A stretch of DNA of 47,277 nt from an uncultured Bacilli bacterium (GTDB lineage: Bacteria > Bacillota_I > Bacilli_A > RF39 > UBA660), in NCBI GenBank assembly GCA_947623815.1, contig CANQHO010000002.1:1-47277 (forward strand). The letters run 5' to 3'. The notes beneath the pieces were generated by a model, which was given only the letters and a program-made list of their open reading frames with translations, did not search any database and was not told the DNA's origin. How positions within the stretch are numbered: position 1 is the first letter of the stretch; every line of letters begins with the position of its first letter. Positions 5,836-24,967 of this stretch are shown here, piece after piece. The translations under genes were made by a program, and so were the position numbers.

Positions 5836-6363
5836 TTAAAATATACCACTAACCATTTGTTTTAAATATCTAGTATATAAAGTTAAAACTTTAGCTTTTT
5901 TTAAATCTTGTTCAATAGTTACTTCTACCTCATCTATTTTATTACCATTTTCTTTTATTTCTAATAAACCAATTACCTCTCCTTTTTTTATAGGTAATTT
6001 TTTATTATTTAATTTTAAATTATAAGTAATAGTACCTATTTTTTCATTTTTATCTCTTACTACTGAAACATCATCTTTAGCTACAACAGATACTTCTTTA
6101 GTTTCAGCTTTATCAAATTTAACTTTAGTAATTTCTTTACCTTTTTCTAAAATTTTTTGGGCTTTCATTTTAGCATATCCATAATCTAATAAAGAACTAA
6201 CTTCACTATTTCTATCAACGGCTTTTTCTTCTCCCATTACAGTAGCAATTAACCGCATATCATTTTTTAAAGAAGTTGCAGTTAAACAATAACCTGCCGT
6301 TTCTGTAAAACCTGTTTTAAGTCCATCAACAATAGAGTTAAATCTTACTAATTTATTAGTATT
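5836..6363 (-). pseudogene. C-terminal fragment of a PBP5/DacF-type D-alanyl-D-alanine carboxypeptidase (piece 3 of 3)
   Basis: Reading upstream of the track ORF gives NTNKLVRFNSIVDGLKTGFTETAGYCLTATS, containing the KTG motif, then the PBP5 C-terminal domain. No start codon of its own at the 5' end. Confidence 0.85.
6352..6363. repeat. 12-bp direct repeat TTTATTAGTATT (left att core of the small element)
   Basis: Identical 12-mer at 8204..8215. The flanking bases differ on both sides at both copies. Confidence 0.85.
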
Positions 6364-6399
6364 TAAAATTTACAATAAAATATTCAAAATTTCATTATT

Positions 6400-6708
6400 T
6401 TATATAAGTTTTTTTTCTCTATCTTTAGATGCAATACATTCACCATTTACATTATATAGTGCAACACTAGTTATTTCTTTCAAATCGTTTAAATATCGAT
6501 TTAATAAATCATCTATCGAAATAAATTTTGGAATGTCATCATCATCAAATATAGGATTAGTTTCAGCAAATCCAACCATAAAACCTTCAATAGTTTGGCA
6601 ATATTCACCTATAGAATATTTATCATTATAAAAATAAACTATTCTATACCCCTCTTCATAATCTTTTCCACCTTTATTCTTTTTCAACTCAATTGGTGAA
6701 ATATTCAT
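6400..6708 (-). CDS. Hypothetical 102-aa acidic protein inside the small element
   Basis: Clean ORF downstream of the recombinase. No recognisable motif. The position makes a directionality factor conceivable, but this is unsupported. Confidence 0.5.
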   Translation of the reverse strand: MNISPIELKKNKGGKDYEEGYRIVYFYNDKYSIGEYCQTIEGFMVGFAETNPIFDDDDIPKFISIDDLLNRYLNDLKEITSVALYNVNGECIASKDREKKLI

Positions 6709-6763
6709 AGTATCATCTCCATTAAAAATATTATATCATATTCATTTTTACAAAAAAAGCAAC

Positions 6764-8011
6764 CTAATTGCTTTTAAATTTTACATTACAAATTTTTATT
6801 TTTTTAGTAGATTTATCTACTTTTATTACCTCAACAAATCTTTCTAAAAATTGTCGTCTCTCTTTATTAGTCAAATACTTCCAGTTTAGTTTAATATCTA
6901 CAACTAAATCTTTTATATCAACCAAATCATATAACTTTCCAATATCTTCATCAAATTCCATATTTTTTAAAGTGCTTAAAAAATTCACAAACTCTTTTTC
7001 TATATTATTATGGGAAAAACCACCACAATCACAACAACCTTTAGAAGAATTATTACATCTATAAGTAATATATAATTTGTCATTTTGTTTTTGTTGTCTA
7101 GCCGATATTTTCCCTCCACATTTTCCACATCTTATAGTAGGAAAATAATAAGAGTTTTCACTTGGATACCTTCTGATTTGATAACCTTTTCTTGTTTTCA
7201 TTATACTATTGGCTAAAGTCCATTTTTTTTTACTAACTATAGATTCTATACCATTACTTTTAACAGTAAATGATCTATCTTTATTTTTTTTATGAACACC
7301 ATATCTAATTTTACCAATATATAATGGATTACTAATTATAGATTTTATTGTTGCGGCTGACCAATTTCCTCCTCTTTTAGTCGGTACATTTTCTTTATTA
7401 AATAGTTGGGCTATTTTAAAATAAGATTTGCCTTCTATATATAAATCAAATATTTTGTTGACCAGTTTTTTTTCCAAATTATTAACAACTAATTTTTGTT
7501 CTCCAACAATATAATCATATCCATAAACTCCATTAGTATTTGTATAATTACCCTCTCTAGTTTTTTGTTCATAACCAAAAGAAACTCTTTCAGCAAGATT
7601 TTCTCTTTCAAATTCCGCAAAAATTCCTATTATTTTGACAAACATTCTTCCAACCGCATTAGAAGTATCAATTTTTTCTGTTTGAGAATTAAATGTACAA
7701 TCACATTTTTCAAACAATTCAATTAAATAAATTAAATCCTTAACACTTCTAGTAAGTCTATCTAATTTATATATTAACACATTATTTATTTTCTTTTTTT
7801 GGACATCTTCAAGTAACCTAGTTACCTCTGGTCTCTCTTCTAAATTTTTACCACTTATCCCATCATCTACATAGTAATCAAATATATTCCAATCATTTAC
7901 TTCCGCATATTTAGTTAATTTTTCTCTTTGAGCATGAATTGAAAATCCATCTTTGGCTTGATCCTCAGTTGATACCCGGATATAAATGCCTGTCATAATT
8001 TTCTCGTCCAT
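6764..8011 (-). CDS. Serine recombinase (resolvase domain + recombinase domain + Cys-rich zinc ribbon)
   Basis: N-terminus GIYIRVSTEDQ carries the catalytic Ser motif. Also LIYKLDRLTRS and RCGKCGG ... YRCNNSSKGCCDCGG. Confidence 0.9.
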   Translation of the reverse strand: MDEKIMTGIYIRVSTEDQAKDGFSIHAQREKLTKYAEVNDWNIFDYYVDDGISGKNLEERPEVTRLLEDVQKKKINNVLIYKLDRLTRSVKDLIYLIELFEKCDCTFNSQTEKIDTSNAVGRMFVKIIGIFAEFERENLAERVSFGYEQKTREGNYTNTNGVYGYDYIVGEQKLVVNNLEKKLVNKIFDLYIEGKSYFKIAQLFNKENVPTKRGGNWSAATIKSIISNPLYIGKIRYGVHKKNKDRSFTVKSNGIESIVSKKKWTLANSIMKTRKGYQIRRYPSENSYYFPTIRCGKCGGKISARQQKQNDKLYITYRCNNSSKGCCDCGGFSHNNIEKEFVNFLSTLKNMEFDEDIGKLYDLVDIKDLVVDIKLNWKYLTNKERRQFLERFVEVIKVDKSTKKIKICNVKFKSN

Positions 8012-8022
8012 TTTAATCCTTA

Positions 8023-8127
8023 CTAAATAGATTCATTTTTCGATTCCAAAATTCTAGGTATACTTGTATTTTGAAAAAATCTCATAATTTCTAATTGAAC
8101 ATCTCTCGATATAATATCATCTATCAT
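8023..8127 (-). CDS. 34-aa ORF upstream of the small-element recombinase
   Basis: Not in the track. GGTGA Shine-Dalgarno, sequence MIDDIISRDVQLEIMRFFQNTSIPRILESKNESI. Speculative. Confidence 0.25.
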   Translation of the reverse strand: MIDDIISRDVQLEIMRFFQNTSIPRILESKNESI

Positions 8128-23228: not shown

Positions 23229-23239
23229 AAAGTTTCACC

Positions 23240-24044
23240 TCACAAATAAATTCTTTATTTTCTTTATATTAGTATACATTTCGTTTCTATCATAAAATTT
23301 AATATCCTTTTCAACTACTTTGTAACATTTACCATTTTTAATTTTTTATAAATCCAAAATTGCCATTTTATTTCTATATTCTGAATGTAGCTAATCTAAA
23401 TTATCTTTATTAATTAATACAATTTTCTTCCATTTCAACTAATAAATCTTTAACATCTTCTAAATATTTATTTTCGTATTTTATTATTTTAATTATAAAA
23501 ATAATACATCTTAGTTGATCCATATTTAAAAAAAGTTAATATTCATTCCTAATTTTTTCAATATTCTGCAAAATGCTATATTTTCTCTTACAACACCATA
23601 AGGAATACTATTTTATTTCTACTTTTTTAAACATATAACACATTATTGTTTTAGCGACTTTCATAACCTTTACCTTGATAAAATAGATTCATATACCAAC
23701 TTACATCACGAATATTAATATCTTCTCCAGTATCTTAAACAGATACTTGTCCTATTAATTCTTCATAACCACTATTTGTGCATTCAGGATTCAAAAATAT
23801 ATTCCATACAAAAACATCTTTATTATCTGCTTTACCAACTGAAGACTTATAAAAATTTTCTTGATTTTCCTAAGTCAAATGACTAATTGTTTGCATGTTT
23901 TTTCACAACTATCAAATACCATTTACTTACTTCTGGCCTCTCTAATATCTCACATAGTCTTTTTTGTTCTTCTACCTTAGAACTTTTTAAAACTAGTTTT
24001 TCTGTTTCTATGGTTTTACTTTCTATTAAATTCATATCGAACAT
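23240..24044 (-). pseudogene. Decayed GNAT-type acetyltransferase remnants (at least two)
   Basis: My minus-strand translation gives TIETEKLVLKSSKVEEQKRLCEILERPEVSKWY, YQGKGY and IPYGVVRENIAFCRILKKLGM, interrupted by many stops and frameshifts. A second remnant gives IIKIIKYENKYLEDVKDLLVEMEE. Confidence 0.45.
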
Positions 24045-24059
24045 TCCTATACTCACTAA

Positions 24060-24439
24060 TTTATATTTAATAAAATCATCTAAAAAATCTGAATTCTTAG
24101 TAATCCATTTGCAATCACAATGTTCATTGCTTAATTTAATATTAATAAAAGATTTATCAATATTTATAATAAAGTTAATTTCTAAATAATAAACAAGTTT
24201 CCCGTTTTATTTTTAACTTCATTATAGCAATGTGTCATAATTGATTTAAAGTATTCATTAAATCTATTTCTTCACATAACTCTCTTCATAAAACTTATTT
24301 TAAAGATTCACATTTTTATAAATAGCCTCCAAGTAATTTTCATGCATCAAGGTATAAATTCATCATTTTCACTTCTGCTTACAAGCAAAAATTTATCATT
24401 ATTTTTTAATATTTCAGTTAAAACAATTCTTGCTTCCAT
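24060..24439 (-). pseudogene. Decayed NUDIX hydrolase gene
   Basis: GGAGG Shine-Dalgarno plus ATG at 24439 (MEARIVLTEILKNNDKFLLVSRSENDEF). After a frameshift it reads DA*KLLGGYL*KCESLK*VL*RELCEEIDL, a NUDIX box with in-frame stops. Confidence 0.45.
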
Positions 24440-24616
24440 AGTTAACCTCCTATTGCTTATATTATATCACAATTTATTTTACTTCTATCATTTAAATAAT
24501 TTTAACAATCAAAAAAACTAGTATTGGTTTTATATATAAAACTTACAATAAATATAAGGCTTATATGTAGTTTCTTCTTTTAAAAGATGCGACTGCTTTA
24601 TTGAAACTGCTAGTTC

Positions 24617-24967
24617 ATTCCCACTAGCAACCGCCACTCCTTTAAATAAATCATTAACACTCATCTGTTCTCCAGTTTCTAAAAGAATTTGACTTCCACC
24701 CATCTTAGAAGCATTTTCACTAACTGTAATCATATCATTCCAGTTAATAGTACCCTTTTCTATTGCTTCAATAATTACAAGCATACTCGCTATTTTAGTC
24801 ATACTCGCTGGGGCTAATTTTTCATGAGCATTTTTTTCAAAAATTACTTTTCCGGTACTTTGTTCAATTAAAACAGCACTTTTAGCCTTAGGGGCTAAAG
24901 TTGTTTCTGCTTTAACTATATTACTAAAAATTAAAAATGTACAAATTAAACATACAAATCTTTTCAT
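24617..24967 (-). pseudogene. N-terminal fragment of the PBP5/DacF-type carboxypeptidase (piece 1 of 3)
   Basis: Signal peptide, active-site SMTK and second motif SGN at the last host codons. The track ORF then runs 29 codons into island DNA (ELAVSIKQ...). Confidence 0.85.

Follow-up and report, generated by a model that had tools for sequence, protein, structure and literature searches.

Is a gene that has been cut into three pieces by mobile DNA lost to its host, a mere landing place for the elements that cut it, or kept for reassembly? The question is raised by contig CANQHO010000002.1 of an uncultured Bacilli bacterium (RF39; UBA660), a stretch of 47,277 nt (called the window for simplicity and numbered along its forward strand). 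In this window dac, a gene for a D,D-carboxypeptidase, is interrupted by two cassettes, element A and element B, each of which carries a large serine recombinase (LSR); dac and both elements are on the minus strand. A previous description made by a model from the letters and the open reading frames (ORFs) of the window, called here the sequence-only reading, had located the pieces and raised the possibility that the gene is reconstituted by programmed excision. Here, we compared the locus with its relatives and weighed this possibility against others.

A carboxypeptidase gene in three intact pieces

Piece 1 of dac (24617..24967, minus strand) encodes residues 1-117 with the signal peptide, the SMTK motif and SGN, and ends in VAVASGN, its reading frame continuing inside element A as far as 24530. 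Piece 2 (8204..8479, minus strand) encodes residues 118-209 (DAVVALAE to FWLVNTNK), and piece 3 (5836..6363, minus strand) encodes residues 206-380, from NTNKLVRF through KTG and the PBP5_C domain to the stop codon, which is followed by a terminator at 5832-5813. The translations of all pieces agree exactly with the split described in the sequence-only reading. That reading had also claimed that deletion of 8480-24616, of 6364-8203 and of one copy of a 12-bp repeat gives a 380-codon frame with SxxK, SGN and KTG, and this was reproduced in silico: joining 24967-24617, 8479-8204 and 6351-5836 (one AATACTAATAAA copy dropped) yields a single frame of 1143 nt and 380 codons in which SMTK55, SGN115 and KTG221 follow in this order. 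In-silico excision was scar-free for both elements, as had been proposed, and there is no stop or frameshift inside any of the three pieces.

The restored Dac scores 278.9 bits against PF00768 (Peptidase_S11) and 43.8 bits against PF07943 (PBP5_C); it thus combines the S11 domain, the SxxK/SxN/KTG motifs in order and the C-terminal domain by which a PBP5-type D,D-carboxypeptidase is recognized. Comparison with uninterrupted relatives, a check put forward in the sequence-only reading, gave intact 381-aa homologs with 83-88% identity that align with the restored protein from end to end. The split ORFs are present in 2-8 contigs, and an independent 5-kb assembly (L082) contains the recombinase gene of element A (recA), piece 2, the recombinase gene of element B (recB), orf102 and piece 3 in the same order as the window. 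The recurrence of both junctions in about 30 further loci puts the split far outside what chance would produce.

The domain combination, the motifs and the length of the restored protein are those of the Bacillus subtilis enzymes DacF (forespore) and DacB (mother cell, sigE), which have about 380-390 residues. The identity to Brevibacillus DacF is only 43-44%, and B. subtilis DacB (PDB 3mfd) is a weaker match to Dac than proteobacterial PBP5/6 structures. The homologs of Brevibacillus, Thermoanaerobacterium and Tepidanaerobacter head spoIIAA-spoIIAB-sigF in the arrangement dacF-spoIIAA-spoIIAB-sigF-spoVA, and the DacF/DacB-type enzyme of the sequence-only reading is probably to be specified as a DacF-type low-molecular-weight penicillin-binding protein (PBP). 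Taken at the level of sequence, these data establish dac as the gene of a predicted DacF-lineage D,D-carboxypeptidase that is split by two unrelated, site-specific LSR cassettes. The two recombinases are about 28% identical to each other, in agreement with the claim that two different elements are involved.

Recombination units and attachment sites

Element A (8480..24616, minus strand) is an LSR cassette of 16,137 bp, and its junction with dac is ambiguous by 2 nt. Because GA alone is common to attL_A and attR_A, it is the inferred crossover dinucleotide (24616-24615 in attL, 8479-8478 in attR). The predicted attP_A junction (AACAGTGACAGAACTAGCAGTTTC) forms an imperfect dyad about GA with 13/24 matching positions; the predicted attB_A junction is GCTAGTGGGAATGATGCCGTGGTAGC. 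Element B (6364..8203, minus strand) is a minimal cassette of 1,852 bp including one 12-bp core, with the cores AATACTAATAAA located at 8204-8215 and 6352-6363. Its dyad centre fits best to AA near the 3' end of the 12-bp repeat, with 14/18 matching positions in the predicted attP_B junction (TTGTAAATTTTAAATACTAATAAAGTTGAATTT) and 12/18 in the predicted attB_B junction (GGTTAGTTAATACTAATAAATTAGTAAGA). Short imperfect dyads with a 2-bp crossover at the presumed cleavage positions are standard serine-integrase anatomy, as are attL and attR that are hybrids of attB and attP, and both predicted sets of att sites have it.

The recombinase of element A (recA, 8442..10130, minus strand) has 562 residues with Resolvase, Recombinase and Zn_ribbon_recom domains and Ser30 in an RVST motif. 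That of element B (recB, 6764..8011, minus strand; Ser14 in RVST) has 415 residues and belongs to a shorter subgroup, most relatives having about 487. In both proteins the LSR domain set PF00239, PF07508 and PF13408 scores above the cut-off. The recA ORF extends 38 nt across attR into piece 2; read-through into dac was rejected as a functional feature, as the overlap is not conserved in relatives.

Each recombinase gene is accompanied by a small ORF that may encode its directionality factor. In element A this candidate is orf71 (10149..10364, minus strand), which probably starts at a conserved TTG (10349) and then encodes 66 residues. Its homologs have 66-71 residues with the conserved pattern ...IDF...KKLDEDI...VKIPI and are located directly upstream of recA in every locus whose contig covers that region; no Pfam or PHROG family matched. 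A strongly conserved hairpin with a T-run (GAACTC..GAGTTCTTTTTTT), found in the window at 10380-10530 and in the aligned region of 18 other A elements, immediately precedes CATTTATTcAAATAtGTTTAAATGAGGAGG and the TTG start of orf71. It matches no Rfam family and may act as an attenuator or as a terminator by which the recombination unit is shielded from the cargo. Two relatives (L041 and L084) have terminator-like hairpins immediately within the left end of element A, the equivalent in the window being weak. The candidate of element B is a micro-ORF of 34 residues (MIDDIISRDVQLEIMRFFQNTSIPRILESKNESI; 8023..8127, minus strand) that the sequence-only reading did not contain. ORFs of 32-47 residues with the motif EIMxFFxNTSIPRIL were present directly upstream of recB in 9/9 B loci examined, and the 34-aa ORF matches phrog_30936, a phage protein family of unknown function. 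The sole cargo of element B, orf102 (6400..6708, minus strand), belongs to no known family. Outside the window it was seen in L082 only and is missing from the other B elements, for which reason it was rejected as the directionality factor in favour of the conserved 34-aa ORF.

Each family has its own fixed site in dac

Related loci (numbered with the prefix L) came from a genome scan queried with the restored Dac, in which other species proved to have interrupted copies, and from a metagenome scan queried with recA, which gave 31 loci. In 25/25 A loci with enough flanking sequence, the recombinase is followed by a dac fragment starting at residue 113-118, and the junction (25 scorable loci) always reads ..|GATGC or ..|GACGC, i.e. 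it lies at the GAT/GAC codon for Asp in SGN|DA. Element B is inserted at GTTAATAC(T/A)AATAAA|, the NTNK codons, in the window and in L034, L082-L086, L102 and L106; in L034 the B-type recombinase comes directly after WLVNTNK. Three further recB relatives checked by their context were all inside dac, with a 766-aa protein, a stretch of over 10 kb with kinase and nucleotidyl-transferase genes, and a sortase-pilus cluster as their respective cargo. Both elements share one dac gene in seven more loci from several diverged hosts (L082, L083, L084, L085, L086, L102 and L106), and element B is enriched among carriers of element A.

The cassettes differ widely in size. Element A measures 2.06, 5.3, 5.8, about 9.6 or 16.1 kb, and in L041 its 2,055 bp contain only the orf71 homolog and the recombinase; overall, the cargo ranges from none (units of about 1.85-2.06 kb) to more than 14 kb. 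In-silico excision gave frames of 376-383 residues in five other loci, L041, L088, L101 and L115 among them, and all 16 complete downstream dac pieces in A-interrupted loci (16/16) are open and of normal length. The sequence-only reading had considered the common orientation of both elements and dac remarkable. This orientation is indeed found in the window, but it is the same in every related locus and thus follows from the polarity of the sites rather than from anything peculiar to the window. The idea that dac is best conserved at the att sites was only moderately true: they rank 115 and 319 among 1101 stretches of the gene compared in the clade.

Some loci deviate from this pattern. In L098 (1925 onward) and L107 (2726 onward), recA with 94% identity stops at about residue 400 and continues into unrelated sequence. 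Of recB, L085 (2345-4040) has no more than a fragment, behind which comes a homolog of the HD-domain gene of the window in inverted orientation. Nested insertions, rearrangements and low-coverage misassemblies are possible causes. An intact mosaic dac of 385 residues was observed in L124 (ERZ27249416 NODE_23365, 1522 bp, coverage 1.5x; protein P0366): the 3' third of its DNA is 98.5% identical to piece 3 of the window and the 5' two thirds are about 77% identical to piece 2, with the switch point within a 40-nt identical stretch across the att core of element B. Either the assembly joined two sequences at a conserved k-mer, or the mosaic is a true recombinant formed at the att site.

The cassettes move between hosts

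Co-divergence of element and host would have spoken for long residence of the elements and for selection on the split gene. Such co-divergence was rejected, as recA identity does not track the identity of the host dac (Spearman -0.20, 120 pairs). L088 and L089 have recA genes with 96% identity in dac genes with only 69%, while L090 and L101 have dac genes with 99% identity and recA genes with only 72%. Within one species and on identical flanks, L102 and L106 carry element B whereas L090, L101, L103-L105 and L108 lack it, and L084 and L086 contain the same A element with different B elements behind it. The contrasts L090/L101, L084/L086 and L088/L089 indicate repeated, independent insertions. 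With such active horizontal movement, intact dac pieces alone are no proof of selection on the split gene. An interrupted dac was found in about 2/24 species representatives of the clade.

The recombinase families A and B comprise more than 120 clusters each, with recA clusters at an identity of at least 71%. In phage records the identity was at most 38% for recB and 43% for recA, and among viral contigs there was no relative of recB and one of recA. No phage structural or lysis gene was found in the window elements, of which only the integrases match a PHROG of known function; the cargo is of metabolic or resistance type. Judged by sequence comparison, both families are established as widespread and horizontally mobile, each with dac as its only observed target.

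Links to sporulation

In the uncultured low-GC clade only a few kb separate dac from the gene of a SigF-like sigma factor and from spoVAC/AD/AE, a linkage seen in A-interrupted (L087, L100), B-interrupted (L115, L116) and intact loci (L002, L012, L029). SigK is also encoded near dac in L012 and L013 (273-284 bits, cut-off 252). The check for sporulation genes that the sequence-only reading had recommended was run on the window and gave a negative answer: none was found in its 47 kb by Pfam, by NCBIfam or by tblastn with SigF, SpoIIAA/AB and SpoVA queries. Species of the orders RF39, RFN20 and ML615J-28 are predicted to include sporulating and non-sporulating ones, with loss continuing (PMC10868615).

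Upstream of dac in the window lies the promoter-like motif CATATT-N13-CATAGATT (25012..25038, minus strand). CATA[TC]-N13/14-CATAnnnT is found upstream of dac in 10/44 unique low-GC upstream regions (0.14 expected); besides the window these are L001, L003, L004, L007, L012-L015 and L018, from species with 59-86% Dac identity. The window as a whole has 2 matches with 0.95 expected. The motif stands at a fixed distance from the start codon, only the dac matches are followed by a ribosome-binding site and an ORF, and in some loci it overlaps a TTGACA box. It resembles the consensus of the mother-cell sigma factors sigE and sigK (after Haldenwang; Helmann and Moran), a resemblance found in AT-rich DNA. 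Its spacing is close to the values in PMC517825. The region upstream of dacF in Brevibacillus contains instead the forespore-type (sigF/G-like) motif GAATA-N18-CAGAATA, and in B. subtilis dacF is expressed in the forespore (bioRxiv 10.1101/2022.02.25.481979); dac of the window differs from dacF in the type of its promoter motif. No sporulation-type promoter was recognizable before either recombination unit (orf71 or the 34-aa ORF); before orf71 there is only CATTTATT after the terminator hairpin, which is not convincing. A scan for sigma-70 promoters gave no excess above chance. Exact look-ups of the fully reconstituted and of the two half-reconstituted Dac proteins in a collection of 15 billion proteins found none of them.

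Parked elements or programmed reconstitution?

The reading that we prefer is that both elements are parked in a partly redundant gene that the cell does not express while growing, and that excision serves mainly the transfer and turnover of the elements, with no host programme. We consider this whole reading evenly poised between right and wrong; the absence of a host programme in excision, taken for itself, is slightly the more probable state. The integrated cassettes would keep dac off, piece 1 ending in element DNA. Together with its small partner, each recombinase would release its element as a circle, which would leave the reading frame exactly restored. The target would be linked to sporulation, growth-silent and partly redundant, and insertion would thus be cheap for the host. 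Such a dispensable parking site accounts for the data just as well as programmed excision does. Single dacF and dacB mutants of B. subtilis are tolerated. One to three paralogs of VanY-type (M15) carboxypeptidases are syntenic with dac throughout the clade, in the window (30182-33704), in L034 (350-3085) and upstream of dac in L115, L117 and L119, which suggests that they might replace the disrupted dac. Parking is further supported by the fixed junctions in about 30 loci, the mobility of the elements, their mobile-element-type cargo, the low share of interrupted dac genes, the missing sporulation-type promoters before the recombination units and the lack of a restored allele.

Several observations weigh against parked elements. 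The neighbours of dac in relatives include sigF-like, sigK and spoVA genes, the promoter motif is of the mother-cell type, two unrelated families have specialized on this one gene, minimal units free of cargo persist, all complete downstream pieces in A-interrupted loci are intact, and element B is enriched in carriers of element A. The dispensability of dac is moreover carried over from B. subtilis and may differ here. The LSR elements tested in such sporulation-gene settings were all developmentally excised (PMC4191935, PMC5595907, PMC5025042, PMC6957869).

These points lead to programmed reconstitution of the skin, SP-beta or gin type, which we hold to be a serious possibility, if a less than even one. 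The sporulating mother cell would excise both elements with the help of the small ORFs, the intact dac would be transcribed from its sigE/sigK-like promoter and serve cortex maturation, and the spore would retain both elements. Linkage of dac to sigF-like, sigK and spoVA genes, seen in hosts of both families and in close relatives of the window host, is as expected for such a programme, even though the gene order points to dacF, which in Bacillus belongs to the forespore, and the window itself has no sporulation gene. The CATAT-N13/14-CATAnnnT motif upstream of dac, present in the window and differing from Brevibacillus dacF (spacing data in PMC517825), points to the mother cell; its assignment is by resemblance in AT-rich DNA, and its spacing is near the lower limit for sigE. 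The layout of a small ORF followed by an LSR is that of sprB-sprA and girX-girC (PMC6957869, PMC5595907), but upstream of the candidate directionality factors no promoter of mother-cell type was recognizable. Every interrupted allele is intact, which in highly mobile elements may only mean recent insertion. RF39-like orders are predicted to include sporulators (PMC10868615), yet no excision product was among the proteins of the 15-billion collection, and two independent excisions would be needed in one cell. The boldest form, in which RF39-like gut Bacilli hold one cortex carboxypeptidase gene split by two LSR families that are both excised in the sporulating mother cell, so that two rearrangements are needed, is in our view rather unlikely. 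If true, it would be the first stacked, two-step developmental gene reconstitution and indirect proof that never-cultured, genome-reduced lineages still sporulate.

Permanent inactivation, i.e. a lineage that is losing sporulation, with dac becoming a pseudogene and the elements no longer excising, is improbable. Loss of sporulation and of PBPs is reported to be under way in these orders (PMC10868615), the window is without sporulation genes and its recB belongs to the shorter subgroup (415 versus about 487 residues). Recombinases of 397-426 residues are, however, also found in apparently functional elements, both recombinases and both small ORFs of the window are intact, and the dac pieces are free of stops and frameshifts, the restored Dac being 83-88% identical to intact orthologs. 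Presence and absence of element B within one species moreover speak for current activity in relatives. A reversible switch that acts outside the mother cell in the manner of active lysogeny, with excision in the forespore or under stress and re-integration of the circle by the recombinase alone, would suit the dacF ancestry seen in the synteny, the ability of LSRs to integrate without the partner that they need to excise (PMC12286644) and the precedent of the Listeria comK prophage (cited in PMC6957869), but the promoter motif favours the mother cell over the forespore and the circles have no replication function, and we hold it to be extremely improbable.

Comparison with known systems

Nearly all LSR elements known from sporulation genes interrupt mother-cell genes, and for those tested, excision takes place in the mother cell (PMC4191935, PMC5595907, PMC5025042, PMC6957869). 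We compared the window with skin/SpoIVCA-Skr (sigK), SP-beta/SprA-SprB (spsM), gin/GirC-GirX (gerE), vfbin, vrin and yin (yabG). Common to these and to elements A and B are an LSR with a small partner gene near one end, insertion within a sporulation-linked coding frame, scar-free excision (here in silico) and sizes from minimal to large; like dac, sigK is a target of several unrelated elements. The present case differs in its target, a DacF-lineage carboxypeptidase, in the stacking of two elements in one gene that recurs across hosts, in the hosts, which are uncultured gut Bacilli with reduced genomes, in excision seen in silico only, and in recombinases whose identity to any member of the phage collection does not exceed 43%.

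The staphylococcal cassette chromosome (SCC) with its Ccr recombinases is similar in that LSR-mobilized cargo cassettes with resistance genes and without transfer genes of their own use one conserved target gene. CcrB is the best NCBIfam match of both recombinases, but identity as CcrA/B/C equivalogs was rejected, the CcrB scores being 119.6 and 196.6 bits with a cut-off of 900. SCC inserts at the 3' end of rlmH, which is not split. dac, in contrast, is cut within the catalytic domain, by element A right after SGN (SxN) and by element B about 12 codons before KTG. XisF of the Anabaena fdxN element, the second or third NCBIfam match (109 and 149 bits, below the cut-off of 375), likewise belongs to an LSR element in a gene needed only in a terminally differentiated cell, although in another phylum and another developmental programme. 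Listeria comK prophages (A118/phi10403S-type) also split a non-essential gene that precise excision by a serine integrase can restore. They are, unlike the window elements, full phages whose excision is cued by the host cell, and the window elements are without phage genes.

Gene-intervening LSR elements as such are thus already known. New are the cortex carboxypeptidase as target, two unrelated families often stacked in one gene, minimal units of only 1.85-2.06 kb, and uncultured, reduced-genome gut Bacilli as hosts; in the literature searches, dac genes did not come up as LSR targets. A cortex carboxypeptidase hereby joins the short list of sporulation-linked landing-site genes, and the phenomenon is extended to gut Bacilli that may be able to sporulate. 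With their exact natural attB/attP pairs, and with small proteins of 34 and about 66 residues as candidate directionality factors, the two LSR families, both of them new, provide material for recombinase tools.

Cargo of the elements

The cargo of element A in the window (10574..23228, minus strand) consists of an APH(3')-family kinase (10574-11350) and an ABC-F ribosomal-protection-type ATPase (11361-13022), both on the minus strand and above the NCBIfam cut-off, an 11-gene cluster of biosynthetic type and a LysR regulator (22329-23228, minus strand). The 11 genes include those for two DegT-type aminotransferases, a radical SAM/SPASM protein, a second radical-SAM-like protein, a methyltransferase, a PHP phosphoesterase and a nucleoside 2-deoxyribosyltransferase-like protein. 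As far as the gene content tells, this looks like a small-molecule biosynthetic cluster with self-resistance. It is shared with none of the other A elements compared. The cargo examined in L119 (10001-18055), L117 (10001-21464), L084 (2202-9657) and L106 (7277-9717) comprises a pilus cluster of the sortase-dependent type (SpaA/Cna_B), NTP-transferase genes clustered with those of APH-type kinases and PHP proteins, WYL, DHH/DHHA1 and PfkB genes, and Ham1, DAHP-synthase-like and PHP genes. Genes of PHP-domain proteins and of APH-type kinases are found repeatedly, in several cargos that are otherwise unrelated. Among distant gut species, the cassettes carry resistance-type genes, pilus operons and a biosynthetic cluster via one conserved site.

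Surroundings of the locus

The window is chromosomal, with about 25% G+C, and contains def, rplT/infC, efp, a PBP2B-type gene, scpA/B, ezrA and three VanY paralogs. A look-up via def to extend the contig found nothing. Three further assemblies of this species (L121, L122 and L123) end 123-128 nt upstream of ezrA, and the right end of the window (47128-47277) lies at the same place, a common breakpoint that suggests a repeat, e.g. an rRNA operon or an insertion sequence. Directly downstream of dac, two small XRE-type helix-turn-helix genes (5207-5428, minus strand; 5542-5826, plus strand) precede a gene (844-5214, minus strand) for a protein of 1456 residues, which has a prepilin-type methylation motif at its N terminus and two internally repeated modules at its C terminus. 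As the closest relative, L001, has murG-murB-ftsQAZ at this place, these genes may be a further insertion. Ribosomal protein L20 (34231-34806, minus strand) has a C-terminal extension of about 80 residues ending in a Rho_N/SAP-like domain.

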